This document shows positions 5,241 through 61,370 of a DNA stretch of 64,000 nt, piece after piece. A model generated the notes under the pieces. The model worked only from the letters and a program-made list of their open reading frames with translations. It made no database searches and was not told the DNA's origin. The DNA comes from a phage: the sequence record PZ019086.1; one strand, 5' to 3'. Each line of letters starts with the position of its first letter. Within the stretch, counting starts at the first letter, position 1. A program made the position numbers and the translations under genes.

Positions 5241-5281
5241 TTTCTAATCTCCGTAATTCTGTATCAGTAGTTGATAGTTGT

Positions 5282-5311
5282 ATAGTACCACAGTATGCTT
5301 TGGTTGTAAAC
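5282..5311 (-). promoter_or_regulatory. T4-type early promoter for motA
   Basis: Minus strand GTTTAC -35, 18-nt spacer, TGG-TACTAT extended -10; A/T-rich UP-like tract upstream. Confidence 0.55.
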
Positions 5312-5518: not shown

Positions 5519-6843
5519 TTGATTTCCTCTAAATCTTTAGTGTATTCTGTAACTACATCAGTAGTTTTCCAATATTCGTTTTCTTCTTTCTTAGCTTTAG
5601 CTTCTTCAGCAAGTTTCTTTGCTTCGTCGGAAGTCATATGAAAAATATTCATTCCGACTAGTTTATCAACATAAGAAGAATACATCTCAATTTTAGAAAG
5701 TTCTTCGGTCAGTTCTTTACGAGTTTTACCCTGCACAACAATTTCACCTGAAATTACTTTCTTAATGAAATGTGCCTTGGCAAAGGCTAAACGAAATGCT
5801 GATTCAGTTTCTTTGATTTTATTATCAATTCGTTTTTGGACATAAGTTTTACGAACTTCAACAAAGTCTTTGATTAAATCAACTACGTTATCGTAAACTT
5901 GTAGCTTTCCTTTCTCATTAATAACGGTGATATTCTGGGAACGACGCTCAATCAATCCAAAGTCTTTCATAATTTTTGCATGGCGTTCTTCTTCGTTATC
6001 GCTCAAAGAATATTCTTTACGGAATTTAACTTTGAAGCCAAAACCATGCTCACCGCAAGCATCATCCCATGTAATGAAGCCTTTATCTTCAAGCGGGTCT
6101 AAGATTTTACTCACGTAAGTTTCACGATCATACTTATATGGAATCTCAGTGATATTCATTTGAGTTCGTGAAGTAAACTTGTACGTTCCACGAATTTCAT
6201 ATTGACTGTCAATTTCAACGACTTCACCACGAAATTCTGGGAATTCTACCTTCGGTTTAGTTACTTTCTTTCCTTGAAGAGCTTGTAGTACAGCTTTCTT
6301 GACAGAAGAAACACTATGAGGAAGAATGTAAGTTGCATAACCAGTTGCAATACCGGAAACACCATTAAGAAGAACAGTAGGAATAATAGGCAAATAAAAA
6401 GCAGGCGGAATGTGTTCTTTATCTTGATGTACCGGAGCATATTCAGTATCTTTATATACACTATAGAAATTTTTACTTACACGGGCAAAAATATAACGAC
6501 TTGCCGCTGCTTTTTGAACGGTACGAGAACCAAAGTTTCCTTGACCATCTAACAAAGGAAAGTTATTATTCCAAGTGTTAGCCATCAAAGCACCTGCGTC
6601 TTGTGCAGAGATTTCACCATGATGATATCCAAGGTCTGCTACACCACCTGCGATAGAAGCGAGTTTGTGAAACTTATCTTTATTTCCTCGTGCCAAATCA
6701 AGAGCTCGAGCAATAACAAATCGTTGAACTGGCTTAAATCCATCAATCATATTTGGGATAGCACGATTTTCAACCGTGTACATAGCATAAGCCAATGCTT
6801 CATTATCAATGATACTTTTTAAATCGCGATTATTCAGTTGCAT
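5515..6843 (-). CDS. 52: DNA topoisomerase II medium subunit gp52 (GyrA-like)
   Basis: 442 aa; GyrA/ParC-like N-terminus (FKPVQRFVIARAL); T4 gp52 is 442 aa. Confidence 0.9.
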   Translation of the reverse strand: MQLNNRDLKSIIDNEALAYAMYTVENRAIPNMIDGFKPVQRFVIARALDLARGNKDKFHKLASIAGGVADLGYHHGEISAQDAGALMANTWNNNFPLLDGQGNFGSRTVQKAAASRYIFARVSKNFYSVYKDTEYAPVHQDKEHIPPAFYLPIIPTVLLNGVSGIATGYATYILPHSVSSVKKAVLQALQGKKVTKPKVEFPEFRGEVVEIDSQYEIRGTYKFTSRTQMNITEIPYKYDRETYVSKILDPLEDKGFITWDDACGEHGFGFKVKFRKEYSLSDNEEERHAKIMKDFGLIERRSQNITVINEKGKLQVYDNVVDLIKDFVEVRKTYVQKRIDNKIKETESAFRLAFAKAHFIKKVISGEIVVQGKTRKELTEELSKIEMYSSYVDKLVGMNIFHMTSDEAKKLAEEAKAKKEENEYWKTTDVVTEYTKDLEEIK

Positions 6844-8391: not shown

Positions 8392-8419
8392 TTTCTGTTC
8401 CTCCGTAGTTGATAGGGTA

Positions 8420-8449
8420 ATAATACCACAGAGGAACAGTCTTGTAAAC
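8420..8449 (-). promoter_or_regulatory. T4-type early promoter
   Basis: GTTTAC / 17 nt / TGG-TATTAT on minus strand. Confidence 0.5.
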
Positions 8450-8898: not shown

Positions 8899-8925
8899 TT
8901 TTGTTCCTCTGTAGTTGATAGTTGT

Positions 8926-8955
8926 ATAGTACCACAGTCCTTGTGGTATGTAAAC
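8926..8955 (-). promoter_or_regulatory. T4-type early promoter with palindromic spacer
   Basis: GTTTAC ... CCACAAGGACTGTGG ... TACTAT on minus strand. Confidence 0.5.
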
Positions 8956-13205: not shown

Positions 13206-13235
13206 ATTATACCACATCCTTGTGGTAAAGTAAAC
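13206..13235 (-). promoter_or_regulatory. T4-type early promoter (consensus -10) with palindromic spacer, upstream of rIIA.1
   Basis: GTTTAC / spacer containing CCACAAGGATGTGG / TATAAT on minus strand. Confidence 0.6.
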
Positions 13236-15055
13236 TATTGGCTCATCCATTCTTTACGAAGGTCAGCATTATCTCCCATGAGCATTTCAAAAAGCTCTTT
13301 CCAGTTCTCAGGAAGTTTAACAACATCATATACTGGGTTTTGAATCATCTCACGATATTCAGATTTTTCCAAAGAGCCAAGTCCCTTAATATAACGGATG
13401 CTATGTTTAGGTAGAGCATCTTTGGCACTCTCATATTCAGCGACTGTATAAAACCATTCTTGTTTTTTACCGACCTGAGCGATGATTACAGGAGTTTTGA
13501 CAAAGCGAATTCTTCCTTGTTCAAACAGTTCTGGCCAATTACTAAAAAATCCGAGCAGAGAAGGATAAATGCTTCCTAGACCATCATGGTCAGCATCGGT
13601 CATAATAGCAATATTATGATAATTCAAGTTTTCAGCCTTTTCACCAAGAACTAATCCAGTGATTGCGCAAATATCAAACAGTTCTTTGTTTTTAAGCATA
13701 TCAGCATATGACATACCCCAACTGTTGAGAACTTTACCACGTAATGGATAACCGCCATGAAGTTCTTTATCACGAACATCAATAAGATATCCGATAGCAG
13801 AATCACCCTCAGTCAAGAAAAGAGTAGTGTCAGCGTCTTTACCGCAAAGATTCGCTTTAATATGTTTATGAACCTTAGCTTTAGAAGCCTTTTTAGCTGC
13901 TTTAGTTTCTGCTGCCTTTTCTGCCGCCAATTTACGAGCCAAAGCAGCTTCAATAATTGGCATTAAAATTGCTTCATTATTTAAAATAGCACGTGAAATC
14001 TTTTTAGCATCAAGCTGAATATGACTACGAATTTCACCAAATGGAGAAGTCAAACGCTCTTTAGTCTGAGAATCAAATCGCATGTTTTTCATATCACGAA
14101 CAAACATAACGATAGTCAAACATTCTTTAACCCGTGCTTTAGTTACATCAATTTTGAACTTACGTTTGATTTGTGGAATAAGGTCTTCACAAATATCATC
14201 CATAACGCAGTCAATGTGATGGCCGCCATTCTTAGTATGAATGTTATTAACGTATGTTAATTGACGAAAACCATCCGGTGAACGACCAATCGCAATAGAA
14301 CAATTTTCTTGTTCTTGAACGATAGCATGCTCATCATATTGGCGTGCGTATTTCTTAAAATTGCCCTGAACCTTTTTACCATTAAAGGTAAATTGAATAT
14401 CAGGATAAACTACTGCAAGTGTCTGGAGACGATCTAGCGTAATGTCAAGATAAACTTGAGATAGCTCATTAGTTTCAAATGACATAAAATCAGGAATGAA
14501 AGTAACACGTGTTCCTTTCCATTTTCCAGGAATAGTTTCCCATGATTTATTTTCCATGCCATTTGAACAACGAACTACAATATTATTTTGACCGTCGCCA
14601 GTTTCACCGACAAACGTCACAGAAAAAATGTTAGTTAAACTAGAACCAACACCGTTCATACCACCAGTGACGCGTTCTTTGTCATCACCGAAGTTACCAC
14701 CTGCCTTTGGAATAGTCCAGGCAGCAACAGGACCAGGAATTTCTTCACCAGTAGGTGTTTTAACCATCGCTTGCGGAATACCACGACCGTTATCTTCAAC
14801 TGTTACTTGATTGTTTTTAATGGTAACATTAATTTTATTTGCGAATTTAAACTTAGTACGAATACCTTCATCTACTGAGTTATCGATAATTTCATCAATA
14901 AGCTTAACAAGACCAGGTACATACTGAACACTTTCCCATTTACCAAACAGAAAGCGCTCATGCATTTCATTAGCAGAAGAGCCAATATACATGCCGCTAC
15001 GCTTTTTGATATGTTCAATATCGCTCAGAATTTTAATTTCATTCTTAATCATCAC
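13235..15055 (-). CDS. 39: DNA topoisomerase II large subunit gp39, uninterrupted (GyrB-like ATPase plus Toprim in one ORF)
   Basis: 606 aa; GHKL motif (IDNSVDEG...DNGRGIP) and Toprim (LFLTEGDSA); T4 splits this into 39 plus 60. Confidence 0.9.
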   Translation of the reverse strand: MMIKNEIKILSDIEHIKKRSGMYIGSSANEMHERFLFGKWESVQYVPGLVKLIDEIIDNSVDEGIRTKFKFANKINVTIKNNQVTVEDNGRGIPQAMVKTPTGEEIPGPVAAWTIPKAGGNFGDDKERVTGGMNGVGSSLTNIFSVTFVGETGDGQNNIVVRCSNGMENKSWETIPGKWKGTRVTFIPDFMSFETNELSQVYLDITLDRLQTLAVVYPDIQFTFNGKKVQGNFKKYARQYDEHAIVQEQENCSIAIGRSPDGFRQLTYVNNIHTKNGGHHIDCVMDDICEDLIPQIKRKFKIDVTKARVKECLTIVMFVRDMKNMRFDSQTKERLTSPFGEIRSHIQLDAKKISRAILNNEAILMPIIEAALARKLAAEKAAETKAAKKASKAKVHKHIKANLCGKDADTTLFLTEGDSAIGYLIDVRDKELHGGYPLRGKVLNSWGMSYADMLKNKELFDICAITGLVLGEKAENLNYHNIAIMTDADHDGLGSIYPSLLGFFSNWPELFEQGRIRFVKTPVIIAQVGKKQEWFYTVAEYESAKDALPKHSIRYIKGLGSLEKSEYREMIQNPVYDVVKLPENWKELFEMLMGDNADLRKEWMSQ

Positions 15056-15940: not shown

Positions 15941-16360
15941 TTATTCCTTAAAGTGAGCTTTCAACATCTGATACAAAGACCACGCCTGTTCATTATTTTC
16001 AATAGTAACTTTCATGACAGGAAATTCTGTGAAATCTTCTATTTGTTCTTGCTCTTCCTGCTCTTGCTCTTCAGATGCCTGATATGGATTTTCAACTTCA
16101 TCAAAGAACTCAGCTTCGTTAGTAGAAAGCCAGATAAAGTTTTCATCAAGGATATCACCATGTTTTGCATATCCAATTGTGCCAGTAAATGACATAATTT
16201 TAGTAGGACGACCAAGATGGTCAGCATCTAAAATTTTAAAAGGATGCATACCTAAACGGCGTGCATAGATTCCGTTATCAGTATGGTCTTTAATAAAATT
16301 TTCTTGAGCTTGTTTATTTTTAAATTGATACCATTTATTAACTTCAAATTTAATAGCCAT
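15941..16360 (-). CDS. Hypothetical protein (139 aa), possibly goF-equivalent by position
   Basis: Lies immediately upstream-adjacent to cef; acidic EQEQEEQEQ stretch. Confidence 0.4.
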
Positions 16361-16575
16361 TAATAAATTTCCTTCCAGTAAGTTGTACCGTCTTCAGTGA
16401 TTTCACGGAATACACCGTAAATTGGTTGTTTATCACCAACCTTTTCATACACATAAACCGAAGTCAAGTGAGTAAACTTAACGGTATGTTCCTTTTGAAC
16501 TACTACCAAATCTGGATCGAATAACACATCTTCAAATTCGTCATTAGTGCAGTTCTGAACAATTTTACGTTTCAT
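16360..16575 (-). CDS. cef: Cef (tRNA processing modifier)
   Basis: 71 aa, same length as T4 Cef and expected position. Confidence 0.55.
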
Positions 16576-16749
16576 TACAATTTCCTCATTAATTGAACAT
16601 TGGAGCGATGCGTTTCAGAAGAGTGGCAGCACCTTTGGCAAATTTTCCATTTTATTCTCCAAGTTATTTTCTGTATCAGTAGTTGATATTGATATAGTAC
16701 CATAATCAACTACTGATGTATATAGTTTTATGAAAAAAAAAATTAAACT

Positions 16750-17247
16750 TTATGCACAGCGAGCTTTGCTATAGTGTTTAATCCAACTTTCAGGAATGAC
16801 TTTGTATGTTCCTAAAAATACTGCGTTGTACAACTTAACGCCATCTTCTACCCACTGATCGGTAATGTATGCACACATAGCGCGAGTACGATGTTTTTGA
16901 ACAACCCCTTCTTCGTCTTCGGTAAATTCAAATTCATAAGGAGCGACGAACTTAATAGCTTGACCGAGTTTCCACTTAAAGTCTACACCTACATGCGAAG
17001 TATCAATCGTTTCAATTCCTTTAGCAGGAACAGCTTTCAAAAACGCAGACTCAAGAAATTTCGCACGAACATAGCCAAACTGGGGTTTAGACTTTCCATC
17101 TTTAGGAATGATACGCACTTTTACTTCAGAATCTTCATCTTTAACACCGTGTTTAAGCTGAATGCTTACAATTTCAACCAATTTTCCTGCTGCTTTAGAA
17201 CGGGATTTATCAGATACACGAGCAATTTCACCAATATTAATAATCAT
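16750..17247 (-). CDS. Hypothetical protein (165 aa), paralog of next ORF
   Basis: Shares C-terminal motif ITDQWVEDGVKLYNAVF with 17324..17866. Confidence 0.5.
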   Translation of the reverse strand: MIINIGEIARVSDKSRSKAAGKLVEIVSIQLKHGVKDEDSEVKVRIIPKDGKSKPQFGYVRAKFLESAFLKAVPAKGIETIDTSHVGVDFKWKLGQAIKFVAPYEFEFTEDEEGVVQKHRTRAMCAYITDQWVEDGVKLYNAVFLGTYKVIPESWIKHYSKARCA

Positions 17248-17323
17248 AGTTATCTCTCACTTGTTAAAAAGATTTTATACTCCGCGGGACCATTATACTC
17301 TGGTCCCAAGAGTTTGTAAACTA

Positions 17324-17866
17324 TTAATTCAAAATAGCTACCACCGCACTACGAGGTACTACACTAAAATCACCTGCATGAACAACGTTCAGAAGTTCAA
17401 CACCATCTTCAATCCACTGGTCTGTTACCCAACCACAGACCGAAATAAATGGGGTCTTAATAGCTACTGCACGAGTTAGAAGGTCGGTAGGGTCTTGTTC
17501 TTCAACTTCTTGGAACAGGATGAACTCTGCTTCATAAACCAGGATTTTCTCTATTTTGTTATTGTCTAAACGACGACCGTGGACAATATAAGATTTAGTA
17601 AACCATTTACTTTTTTCAAAGTCTTCAACAGTAAATTCGCCTTCGCCAAAAACATCAGTCAAAATTTTATGGCCGGAAATCAAGGCATTAGTTTTAATTT
17701 CAGGTTCAACCAGTTTGTAGGTTTTGCCGATTTCAATAGCAGTAGTCATAGTAGGTTCCTTAATTTCCAGTGGTTTAACAGGGCATACATAAGTGCTTAC
17801 AACATCAAAATCAATCAGTTTAGCTACCGGATTTGGTGTGTATTCAGGATTATAATTAAATTTCAT
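17324..17866 (-). CDS. Hypothetical protein (180 aa), paralog of previous ORF
   Basis: C-terminal VTDQWIEDGVELLNVVH motif shared with 16750..17247. Confidence 0.5.
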   Translation of the reverse strand: MKFNYNPEYTPNPVAKLIDFDVVSTYVCPVKPLEIKEPTMTTAIEIGKTYKLVEPEIKTNALISGHKILTDVFGEGEFTVEDFEKSKWFTKSYIVHGRRLDNNKIEKILVYEAEFILFQEVEEQDPTDLLTRAVAIKTPFISVCGWVTDQWIEDGVELLNVVHAGDFSVVPRSAVVAILN

Positions 17867-23341: not shown

Positions 23342-23408
23342 GATAGCCTCCGTATACTTCAGAAGCTATCATATCATTGTTAGGAAGGAAAGTAAACAAC
23401 TTTTTGAA

Positions 23409-28767: not shown

Positions 28768-28795
28768 GATAATCTCCTCAGTAGTTTATGTTTAT

Positions 28796-28825
28796 ATAGT
28801 ATCTCAATTTCCAACAAAAGTAAAC
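28796..28825 (-). promoter_or_regulatory. T4-type early promoter
   Basis: GTTTAC / 18 nt / TACTAT on minus strand. Confidence 0.45.
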
Positions 28826-61342: not shown

Positions 61343-61370
61343 TTTCTGTTCCTCCGTAGTTGATAGTTGT

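Follow-up and report, generated by a model that had tools for sequence, protein, structure and literature searches.

A probable T4-type early-promoter cassette with a stem-loop around its -10, followed by a deletion scar, in the motB-cef gap of a Tequatrovirus

The noncoding gap between motB and cef in phage record PZ019086.1 probably holds an early-promoter cassette of T4 type that belongs to the PeSL elements (a promoter with a stem-loop); the scar of a deletion follows it. The stretch of this record that we analysed, a 64-kb window, belongs to a Tequatrovirus, and the same gap is found in T4 (T4 6483-6652); motB and cef are the annotated names of the flanking genes in T4 and its relatives, and a Cef homologue occurs in 1048 phage records. 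On this reading the oddities of the gap are ordinary: one copy of a repeated early-promoter cassette would account for its palindrome, its poly-A run and its -10, and the stump of a gene for its mini-ORF. On the minus strand the order is an A/T tract, TATACA, a 17-nt spacer, TGGTACTAT, ATCAACTACTGAT, an unstructured leader, a Shine-Dalgarno/RegB motif and the start codon of phrog_3720. The features of the gap and its neighbours are as follows.

17292..17320, minus strand: early promoter upstream of motB, TTTACA-17-TATAAT (promoter scan, 11/12 matches)
16750..17247, minus strand: motB, 165 aa, stop codon TAA at 16752-16750 (ORF list; phrog_1671 MotB-like, E = 2e-76)
16725..16742, minus strand: upstream A/T-rich module of the cassette, TTTTTTTTTTCATAAAAC, which aligns with TTTTTTCAYAAAAC of the motA promoter and other early promoters
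16717..16722, minus strand: -35 element TATACA, at 17-nt spacing to the -10
16705..16717, minus strand: left (5') arm of the hairpin, ATCAGTAGTTGAT, in the promoter spacer (script check and fold)
16694..16702, minus strand: extended -10, TGG-TACTAT (TG at 16702-16701, hexamer at 16699-16694), in the apical part of the hairpin
16675..16687, minus strand: right (3') arm of the hairpin, ATCAACTACTGAT, which is the conserved initial transcribed module (paralogue alignment)
16650..16660, minus strand: GGAGAATAAAA, Shine-Dalgarno of the former gene and match to the RegB/S1 consensus (sequence)
16615..16650, minus strand: mini-ORF MENLPKVLPLF, 11 codons (alignment with phage P8)
16589..16639, minus strand: 3' remnant of the deleted gene in its original frame (..AKGAATLLKRIAPMFN), stop codon TAA at 16591-16589 (tblastn)
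16360..16575, minus strand: cef, 71 aa, with Shine-Dalgarno GAGG at 16587-16584 (phrog_1354 cef, E = 5e-38)

An earlier sequence-only reading of the gap had pointed to a TGG-TACTAT -10-like core on the minus strand. The element is present at 16702-16694, and its sequence, TGGTACTAT, is identical in six other early promoters of the window and in the annotated T4 motA promoter. It is the consensus T4 early extended -10 (TGn followed by TA(C/T)(A/T)AT) and agrees with the published T4 early motif TGTG(A/G)TA(C/T)(A/T)AT; it also matches the -10, TAYWAT, of the PST/T4 PeSL promoter consensus TTTACW-N17-TAYWAT given in passages of PMC2839356 and PMC4122927. The resemblance extends well beyond the -10. 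The T4 motA early promoter, for which Z48569.1 annotates both the -35 and the -10, aligns gaplessly with the minus strand of the gap over ~85 nt, as do 8 to ~14 paralogous early-promoter cassettes of the window; both the upstream TTTTTTCATAAAAC and the downstream ATCAACTACTGATACAG lie in gapless alignment with this family. We scored the window with a weight matrix trained on 14 other early promoters, the gap copy being outside the training set. The gap promoter reached 33.3 bits, 6.7 SD above the mean; it was the best non-training site, ranked 13 of 128,000 positions, and exceeded 7 of the 14 leave-one-out scores. The motA alignment and the weight matrix thus both place the gap among the putative early-promoter cassettes, in keeping with the earlier suggestion that a promoter -10 sits in the loop of an inverted repeat.

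The -35 of the predicted promoter is weak, TATACA contributing 4.4 bits to the weight-matrix score against a family mean of 9.5. Compared with GTTTAC(A/T), it has a spacing of exactly 17 nt, one mismatch to TTTACA and no preceding G. TATACA or TGTACA also occupies the -35 in the Dhakavirus and phiE142-type orthologues. A simple sigma-70 scan left the gap site uncalled, at 8/12 matches with a threshold of 9. Upstream of the -35, the A10 run at 16733-16742 (plus strand) is there as the sequence-only reading described it and is the sole homopolymer of at least 9 nt in the window; it is the upstream T-tract of the cassette, and the T-run varies from 5 to 10 among relatives. Downstream of the -10, the 13-mer ATCAACTACTGAT recurs at the same position in the motA promoter of the window (5263-5275), with near-copies at 8401, 8907 and 61352. 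The spacers of the paralogous promoters, in contrast, are unrelated to that of the gap copy, and the left arm is specific to the gap. The T4 motA promoter therefore shares with the gap a near-identical upstream tract, TGGTACTAT, the downstream ATCAACTACTGATACAGA and a 17-nt spacer; but motA has TTTACA and an unrelated spacer, hence no hairpin, whereas in the gap copy the -35 is TATACA and the spacer can pair with +1..+13. Cassette sequence occurs 2-5 times per genome, at 1582 places in 535 records.

Placing the start 7 nt from the -10 gives a predicted transcription start at A16687 (T4 coordinate 6594), and the cef/goF unit is probably served by this weak promoter of its own. Neither GenBank M89919, which holds coding features only, nor the T4 genome records carry a promoter feature at the gap, and the MotB paper, the T4 omics paper and the LSm/GoF paper are silent on start or processing sites within it. 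A T4 dRNA-seq preprint reports 150 T4 start sites. Two other kinds of promoter were considered for the gap and rejected. A middle promoter would call for a MotA box (TGCTT), which is not present, and the table of Hinton (2010) has no middle promoter between T4 5349 and 10058. On the plus strand the loop TGATATAGT reads as an extended -10 but has no -35 (TCTGTA), and the best plus-strand weight-matrix score at the gap is below zero.

The inverted repeat around the -10 had been described as 11 bp long. CAGTAGTTGAT (16677-16687) and ATCAACTACTG (16705-16715) are indeed exact reverse complements, and a script check extends the perfect repeat to 13 bp (16675-16687 / 16705-16717); a general repeat search did not list it. 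The added length matters: local shuffles yield 0.95 such repeats per window with 11-bp arms but 0.05 with 13-bp arms, so that the repeat as first described lies near chance and the full one does not. No other perfect 13-bp inverted repeat whose loop measures 3-30 nt exists in the 64 kb. Folded as minus-strand RNA, it gains an inner stem of 5 bp (UGGUA 16702-16698 / UAUCA 16694-16690) and has a dG of -20.2 kcal/mol, with z = -5.9 to -6.6. A 49-nt stretch here keeps at least 99% identity across 475 of 501 phage records, while the surrounding 1 kb is 90-98% identical. Conservation among relatives, which the sequence-only reading had named as a check on both the repeat and the mini-ORF, holds for the repeat; the mini-ORF varies in length and sequence. 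In the one variant examined, A16703 is G in SG1, a change that lies in the internal loop and shifts the -10 region toward the consensus TGTGG.

What might such a hairpin control? It covers neither a Shine-Dalgarno nor a RegB site, its 3' arm ending 14 nt before GGAG, and because it sequesters nothing, the difference between a transcript that contains it and one that does not is not obvious. A search of Rfam 15 gave no covariance-model match at E <=1 in 16200-17400. The RegB motif lies outside the hairpin, although in the minimum-energy fold of 177 nt UUGGAG is paired with CUCCAA 50 nt downstream. We regard the long-range pairings of this fold, of the T-run with the region of the cef Shine-Dalgarno and of UUGGAG with CUCCAA, as chance, since they are weak and would be 208 nt further apart in intact alleles. 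Elsewhere in the window such hairpins do reach a target. Counting all early cassettes, 7 of 16 have a -10-straddling hairpin with z <= -3.8, and in 5 of those 7 the 3' arm hides a downstream Shine-Dalgarno or RegB GGAG. The motB promoter is also among the early-promoter cassettes and has a -10-straddling hairpin of its own.

We compared the promoters upstream of cef across T4-like phages. In at least 9 genera the orthologous promoter has a hairpin around its -10, the arms of which come in at least 8 different sequences; hairpins with different arms straddle the -10 in Karamvirus, Winklervirus, Marfavirus, Dhakavirus, Gelderlandvirus, Mosugukvirus, Tulanevirus and a phiE142-type lineage. Jiaodavirus KLB2 is without a straddling hairpin, and in Gaprivervirus SP18 and TH57 the hairpin is kept and the promoter is gone. 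In the Tequatrovirus hairpin the apical region spans 17 nt, and the dyad axis lies ~2.5 nt off that of the other genera. The anchored alignment has 81% of its cells paired, a share that drops to 33-44% once the partners are slid. Two-sided changes occur at 9 of 13 pairs and G·U is tolerated; 2 of 500 shuffles matched the 9/13 two-sided pairs and none of 500 matched the covariation score, in a test whose structure was derived from the same sequences and which is to that extent biased in favour of structure. Six sequences have interior G·U pairs on the sense strand. Sense folds better than antisense in 11 of 14 sequences, CHI14 being better on the antisense. Overall, G·U and A·C account for 9 cells each, the latter mostly at the stem periphery. 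Given the compensatory arm changes and the G·U pairs across genera, these comparisons favour a structure in RNA that only read-through transcripts would form, with an RNA-versus-DNA argument that is thin. That compensatory changes appear to have held the hairpin upstream of cef across so broad a range of T4-like genera is, we believe, modestly new.

We propose that host sigma-70 RNA polymerase would start at about A16687 and transcribe cef and goF. The left arm (13 nt) lies in the spacer and would pair with the first 13 transcribed bases; being in the spacer, it would be missing from local transcripts, which would thus have no 5' arm and an open leader. Read-through RNA from the motB promoter would instead fold the hairpin, 18 bp in all, ~30 nt past the motB stop codon, and the hairpin may there mark the end of the upstream message. 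It could attenuate read-through, or it could hold back 3'-exonucleases once RegB or RNase E has cleaved downstream; either role is one that we can only infer. More broadly, T4-like phages might use -10-straddling hairpins as a general means of separating local from read-through mRNAs, with a so-far undescribed role for the one at cef, an idea that we hold to be possible but doubtful. If it is true, a 3' arm placed over a Shine-Dalgarno or a RegB GGAG would let the hairpin switch translation and RegB sensitivity, and the role of the cef hairpin could be, for example, 3'-end formation independent of a U-tract or stabilisation of the upstream message.

The mini-ORF, too, has a history. It is present with its GGAG as the sequence-only reading reported (GGAG at 16660-16657, ATG at 16650, stop at 16617-16615), and in it the start of an 89-aa gene (phrog_3720) is joined, out of frame, to the 3' end of the same gene. 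Alignment of this region with phage P8, which carries the intact 270-nt gene, makes this plain; the intact 89-aa protein matches phrog_3720 with E = 8e-46, and tblastn finds its residues 72-89 in deleted-form loci. The deletion removes 208 bp between the 11-nt direct repeats ATGGAAAACTT and ATGTAAAATTT, with its junction inside GAAAATTT (16647-16640). As read from these sequences, the 208 bp was evidently lost by recombination between the two repeats. The central 208 bp is present in 261 phage records of the ~500-535 that hold the locus, and its loss is shared by T4 and about half of Tequatrovirus records. Among relatives the mini-ORF ranges from 4 to 11 codons: MENSLKVLILF in T4, MEIRQRC in SG1 and MEIR in L008.

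The former ribosome-binding site is of interest for RNA processing. GGAGAATAAAA, at 16660-16650, is an exact match to the 11-nt RegB/S1 consensus GGAGAAUAAAA (Durand et al. 2006, PMC1702504; PMC3014915), in which GGAG runs into 7 nt that are A-rich and free of C (GGAGRAYARAA), and a candidate RegB cut is expected between G16659 and A16658, at 6566/6565 in T4 coordinates. Like the RegB/S1 targets described in sections of PMC1702504, it is an intergenic GGAG followed by AAUAAAA that has the exact 11-nt consensus and doubles as an early-gene Shine-Dalgarno, and the cut sites described there include Shine-Dalgarno sequences of 'very small ORFs'. It differs from those targets in that cleavage at the gap motif is undocumented in the available part of the PMC1702504 text.

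The repeat had been interpreted as an operator. A dimeric DNA-binding repressor, of phage or host, could sit on the two half-sites and occlude the -10; the perfect 13-bp dyad around the -10 is strongly conserved within Tequatrovirus, and MotB, encoded immediately upstream, binds DNA (PMC6070864). However, several early promoters share the right half-site as their generic +1..+13 module yet have no inverted partner for it, and across genera the arms change completely while their pairing is kept, through compensatory changes and G·U pairs that in DNA would be mismatches. On these grounds the operator is not supported. Moreover, the SP18 and TH57 hairpin persists where there is no promoter to repress; only the right half-site recurs in the window, and the half-site is not conserved among relatives. 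We know of no classical repressor of T4 early promoters. Early shut-off in T4 was ascribed to other mechanisms by Hinton (2010), and we consider an operator very unlikely. A structure acting in the DNA itself is unlikely: a cruciform or single-stranded fold might modulate promoter opening, or the repeat might be a recombination hot spot that shuffles gene cassettes. Passages of the PeSL papers tie these elements to indels and mini-circle formation and map one crossover inside the loop of a stem-loop (PMC2839356; PMC4122927), and in our case the cassette recurs within each genome and adjoins the 208-bp indel polymorphism. That deletion, however, took place between 11-nt repeats within a gene, neither from cassette to cassette nor at the hairpin, and the G·U pairs and the sense-strand bias in stability indicate RNA. 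A 17-nt central spacer disfavours cruciform extrusion, and nothing favours a cruciform at the gap repeat.

Perhaps the hairpin has no function at all? The left arm could have arisen by a templated (quasi-palindrome) mutation or by chance and persist in a young cassette spread by recombination. Promoter-family conservation alone explains half of the repeat, Tequatrovirus genomes recombine so freely that near-identity could mean a recent sweep, and no downstream Shine-Dalgarno or RegB site is sequestered. Yet the spacer, free of promoter constraint, is invariant in those 475 of 501 records, against a divergence of 2-10% in the flanking genes, and independent lineages keep the orthologous hairpin through compensatory changes; we judge this account quite unlikely. 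That the hairpin is a canonical intrinsic terminator of the motB transcription unit is highly improbable. It is stable and lies 30 nt past the motB stop; one RB49 PeSL stem-loop equalled rrnB T1 in a reporter, according to a passage of Arbiol et al. (2010, PMC2839356), and the RB49-like locus of L021/L044 has a true hairpin-plus-T-tract over its -35. The stem in the gap, however, is A/T-rich and is followed by AUACAGAAAAUAAC, with no U-tract on either strand, which makes classical intrinsic termination unlikely; a terminator scan found nothing in the gap, and the sequence after the orthologous hairpins is A/C-rich. The sequence-only reading had also suggested that the mini-ORF could be a leader peptide, its translation controlling cef. 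Its Shine-Dalgarno and spacing are good (GGAG, 6 nt, ATG), and it ends 39 nt before the cef start codon. The proposal nonetheless loses its footing, since the ORF is a frameshifted remnant of the 208-bp deletion that varies among relatives: the sequence differs in T4, is cut to 7 codons in SG1 and 4 in L008, and gives way to the 89-aa gene in about half of relatives. We found no alternative terminator/antiterminator pairing in the gap, and regard a regulatory leader peptide as scarcely credible.

Returning to the promoter cassette, we find that the gap element fits the published PeSL class, so that its kind is already known. As in the accounts of PeSLs given in parts of PMC2839356 and PMC4122927, an A/T-rich tract, a sigma-70-type early promoter, a stem-loop, and a Shine-Dalgarno with start codon stand together; the downstream gene is small and non-essential, there are many copies per genome, and the element lies in a variable region beside an indel. 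In the gap the stem-loop within the promoter is stable (13 + 5 bp), and the GGAG and ATG are those of phrog_3720, which about as many relatives have lost as have kept. The PST/T4 stem-loops of those accounts, by contrast, lie 'just upstream' of the promoter and have an AGNA..TCNT consensus, whereas the gap stem straddles the -10 and is much longer; the gap -35 is off-consensus, and the neighbouring deletion is no PeSL-PeSL exchange. Stem-loops that overlap the -10 are nevertheless a common PeSL subclass in the relevant passages of Arbiol et al. (2010, PMC2839356), who proposed a terminator or attenuator role. The gap also resembles T4 e, soc, 49 and I-TevI, whose hairpins hide the ribosome-binding site in long transcripts but leave it free in those begun within the hairpin (PMC3014915, section 29): with the promoter inside the hairpin, only read-through RNA can fold, and five other early promoters of the window do the same with a Shine-Dalgarno or GGAG. 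Those T4 genes, however, use late promoters, and the gap hairpin sequesters nothing obvious.

An RNA-level role for PeSL stem-loops has been proposed before and little tested; the comparative result and the 7 of 16 cassettes support it. According to part of PMC1702504, growth does not suffer when the motB region is deleted, and the dispensable T4 locus is thus a clean place to test what a PeSL stem-loop does.

For annotation, the mini-ORF should not be named a gene or a leader peptide, and T4 itself carries the deleted allele of phrog_3720. We likewise take the other small ORFs of the gap, a 44-aa TTG ORF (16575-16709, minus strand) and plus-strand ORFs of 28-29 aa, to be spurious, because they have no Shine-Dalgarno, all cross the deletion junction and would be impossible in full-length alleles.

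Inspection of the sequence alone had singled out four features of the noncoding motB-cef gap (16576-16749): an inverted repeat, a -10-like element in its loop, an 11-codon mini-ORF and a run of ten A residues. All four are indeed present, each where it had been placed. The phage belongs to Tequatrovirus and is closely related to T4, and the genes around the gap all lie on the minus strand:

16750-17247, minus strand: motB (phrog_1671)
16360-16575, minus strand: cef (phrog_1354)
15941-16360, minus strand: goF/comC-alpha

Gap features are given in the direction of transcription, 5'->3' along the minus strand. The 1-kb region around the gap matches 519 phage records at 90-98% identity, and T4 has the same noncoding gap (T4 6483-6652). 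At 13235-15055 (minus), the gp39 topoisomerase subunit is one 606-aa ORF, compared with the 39 + 60 split in T4; hence, the phage is T2/T6-like at this locus. MotB and the product of the 180-aa gene upstream of motB (17324-17866, minus) have a common C-terminal motif, ..TDQW(I/V)EDGV(E/K)L.., and tblastn with MotB matched both genes in every close locus. The two genes thus look like tandem paralogues, as already noted for RB69 (PMC1524935).

The inverted repeat is longer than first noted: 16717-16705 pairs perfectly with 16687-16675 over 13 bp, and an inner stem adds 5 bp. Folded as RNA, it has a dG of -20.2 kcal/mol (z = -5.9). It is the sole perfect 13-bp short-loop inverted repeat in the 64 kb, and shuffles give 0.05 such repeats per window. 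They give 0.95 for 11-bp arms, so the repeat as originally described would be unremarkable. Four other perfect 11-12-bp short-loop repeats were seen, at 41921-41932/41952-41963 (arms TGGACGCAAG..CTTGCGTCCA), 15532/15571, 20185/20219 and 42390/42426, against a chance expectation of roughly one 11-bp repeat per window.

Is the -10-like element part of a promoter? A scan with a T4-type promoter regular expression showed that the gap resembles the window's other early promoters far beyond the hexamers. An ungapped alignment of about 85 nt links it to the T4 motA promoter (-35 and -10 annotated in Z48569.1; window copy at 5310), and cassettes at 8954, 61399, 35096, 63317, 8448, 62840 and 17320 align with it as well. 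Common to the cassettes are an upstream tract, TTTTTTCAYAAAAC, a second element, TGGTACTAT, and a downstream element, ATCAACTACTGATACAGA. The A10 run, the window's only homopolymer of at least nine, is the opposite strand of that upstream tract. We trained a weight matrix on 14 other early promoters of the window and scored 128,000 positions. At 33.3 bits, the gap was the top non-training site, ranking 13th of all positions and exceeding 7 of the 14 leave-one-out scores. Its -10 agrees with the published T4 early motif, TGTG(A/G)TA(C/T)(A/T)AT, and with the PST/T4 consensus, TTTACW-N17-TAYWAT. Its weakness is a -35 of TATACA rather than TTTACA, which is why a generic promoter scan missed the site. 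Membership in the T4 early-promoter family is firmly supported by sequence, and the promoter presumably fires despite its weak -35. The standard 7-nt distance predicts a start at A16687 (T4 6594); in the literature and T4 records searched, we found no experimental start at this position. Outside the training set, sites at 28824, 29139, 22061 and 29627 (minus; 12-25 bits) are probably additional early promoters.

The two arms of the repeat differ in character. The right arm is the usual initial transcribed sequence of the family: motA has the identical 13-mer after its -10, and three other promoters are followed by near-copies, all without an inverted partner. The left arm, which lies in the 17-nt spacer, is the only one specific to this copy, and it is complementary to +1..+13. 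Since the left arm lies upstream of the start, RNA begun at the gap promoter is unable to form the hairpin; RNA from the strong upstream motB promoter (17320-17292) can. Within Tequatrovirus, the repeat is well conserved: 475 of 501 records match a 49-nt stretch at 99% identity or more, far above the conservation of the flanking genes. The sole variant examined changes an internal-loop base and improves the match to TGTGG. At least five early promoters carry a start-of-transcript module, ATCAACTAC(TGAT), at +1 (5263-5275, 8401-8413, 8907-8919, 61352-61364 and 28777-28789, minus); the module has 14 matches at two or fewer mismatches versus 2.7 expected. Promoter recognition alone is insufficient to explain conservation of the first 10-15 transcribed bases.

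We then collected Cef homologues from IMG/VR and phage records and inspected the sequence preceding each. In Karamvirus, Winklervirus (CHI14), Marfavirus, Dhakavirus, Gelderlandvirus, Mosugukvirus, Tulanevirus and a phiE142-type lineage, cef has a textbook early promoter in front of it. All eight groups have an inverted repeat around the TGn/-10 block, with differing arms:

Arm pairs upstream of cef in other genera
GGTGTAGG/CCTACACC
GGTAGGAGC/GCTCCTACC
AGGGCTAT/ATAGCCCT
AGGGTTAT/ATAACCCT
GGTCTAT/ATAGACC
ATAGGGTA/TACCCTAT
GGTAGAAGAC/GTCTTCTACC
GATGTGGC/GCCACATC

One caveat to the comparison is that the hairpin of Tequatrovirus differs from these in its larger apical region and shifted axis. In Gaprivervirus, cef lacks its own promoter and keeps a 7-bp hairpin, GATAGGG..CCCTATC, directly before the Shine-Dalgarno, with loops that differ between the two phages:

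Shigella phage SP18, cef locus L051, 182-229: hairpin
Phage TH57, cef locus L057, about 140-175: hairpin

Jiaodavirus KLB2 is an exception, with only a small hairpin within the spacer. In an alignment anchored at the -10 (a small sample of 16 distinct sequences, from which the tested structure was itself derived), 81% of cells paired, versus 33-44% with partners slid. Two-sided changes occurred in 9 of 13 pairs (reached by 2/500 shuffles), and the covariation score was 0.42 versus 0.18 in shuffles (reached by 0/500). Six sequences have sense-strand G·U pairs within stems, and 11 of 14 fold better on the sense than on the antisense strand.

The sequence-only reading had proposed an operator for a dimeric repressor. 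Arms that differ among genera while pairing is retained, together with the covariation and the G·U pairs, argue against a sequence-specific operator. A DNA-level role for the gap repeat, as a cruciform or recombination site, is improbable, and so is a neutral origin. That the gap hairpin is real and selected is firmly supported, and we argue from these comparisons that the cef-upstream hairpin is a structure maintained by selection, most simply at the RNA level. In read-through RNA, the gap hairpin may delimit the motB message, either by attenuating transcription or by blocking 3' exonucleases after downstream cleavage. A classical intrinsic terminator is unlikely because no U-tract follows the hairpin. 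Of the earlier interpretation, then, the promoter -10 stands; the operator and the leader peptide suggested for the mini-ORF are wrong or unsupported.

Many relatives carry about 208 additional bases in the gap and have an annotated 89-aa gene there, whose product belongs to a genuine family (phrog_3720, E = 8e-46). In the alignment, the window, T4 and phage L14 have the first 11 nt of this gene (ATGGAAAATTT) fused straight to its final 51 nt. Where the allele is intact, the segment missing here lies between ATGGAAAACTT and ATGTAAAATTT, two copies of an 11-nt repeat that agree at 9 of 11 positions. The deletion is 208 bp and hence shifts the frame; tblastn still finds the last 18 codons in deleted loci. 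Of the approximately 500-535 phage records with the locus, 261 contain the central 208 bp, so that intact and deleted alleles are roughly equal in frequency. The mini-ORF (16615-16650) encodes no conserved peptide: it reads MENLPKVLPLF in the window, MENSLKVLILF in T4, MEIRQRC in the relative SG1 and MEIR in cef locus L008. We conclude, with firm support from these alignments, that it is a deletion scar; given this origin and the variable stump, we reject the leader peptide.

The former gene's Shine-Dalgarno (GGAGAATAAAA, 16660-16650) exactly matches GGAGAAUAAAA, the 11-nt consensus given in PMC1702504 and PMC3014915 for efficient cleavage by RegB/S1. The RegB-type motif itself is firmly supported, and the Shine-Dalgarno thus doubles as a putative RegB site. 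In T4, 68 of 71 intergenic GGAG sites were tested by Durand et al. (PMC1702504), whose figure legend refers to Shine-Dalgarno sequences belonging to "very small ORFs."

The gap element fits the PeSL (promoter and stem-loop) cassettes of T4-like phages (PMC2839356, PMC4122927). These comprise an A/T-rich tract, early promoter, stem-loop, and Shine-Dalgarno and start of a dispensable ORF, with copies repeated across variable regions (PMC2839356, PMC4122927). Stem-loops over the -10 are a described subclass, with a proposed terminator or attenuator role (PMC2839356), and phage PST, analysed in PMC4122927, carries the identical 49-mer. No Rfam family matches the gap region. The gap element is a further member of this known class.

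Seven of the window's 16 early cassettes have a -10-straddling hairpin of significant stability. At 8448, 61399, 18425 and 23396 (first -35 base, minus), hairpins of 12-15 bp straddle the -10, and the downstream Shine-Dalgarno (GGAGG/GAGGA) falls within the 3' arm, joined at 23396 by the start codon; hence, the ribosome site would be masked in read-through transcripts only. The spacer agactgttcctctgtgg is identical at 8448 and 61399, suggesting a duplicated cassette. The motB promoter also has a hairpin around its -10 (ACTCTTGGGACC..GGTCCCGCGGAGT, dG -19.7; 17292-17320, downstream to about 17270, minus). Its 3' arm would cover the GGAG of the leader (GGAGTATAAAA), the well-studied target of RegB in motB mRNA, which by this fold would be paired only in transcripts from farther upstream. 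The gap and 62840 hairpins mask no Shine-Dalgarno or GGAG. Masking by a promoter-containing hairpin occurs in T4 genes e, soc and 49. The T4 logic is that a promoter inside the hairpin restricts masking to read-through RNA (PMC3014915). Early promoters at 8954 and 13234, and the cef locus of Klebsiella phage KLB2, have a small spacer-internal hairpin, CCACAAGGAnTGTGG, that uses the conserved TGTGG; these represent another PeSL subclass already described.
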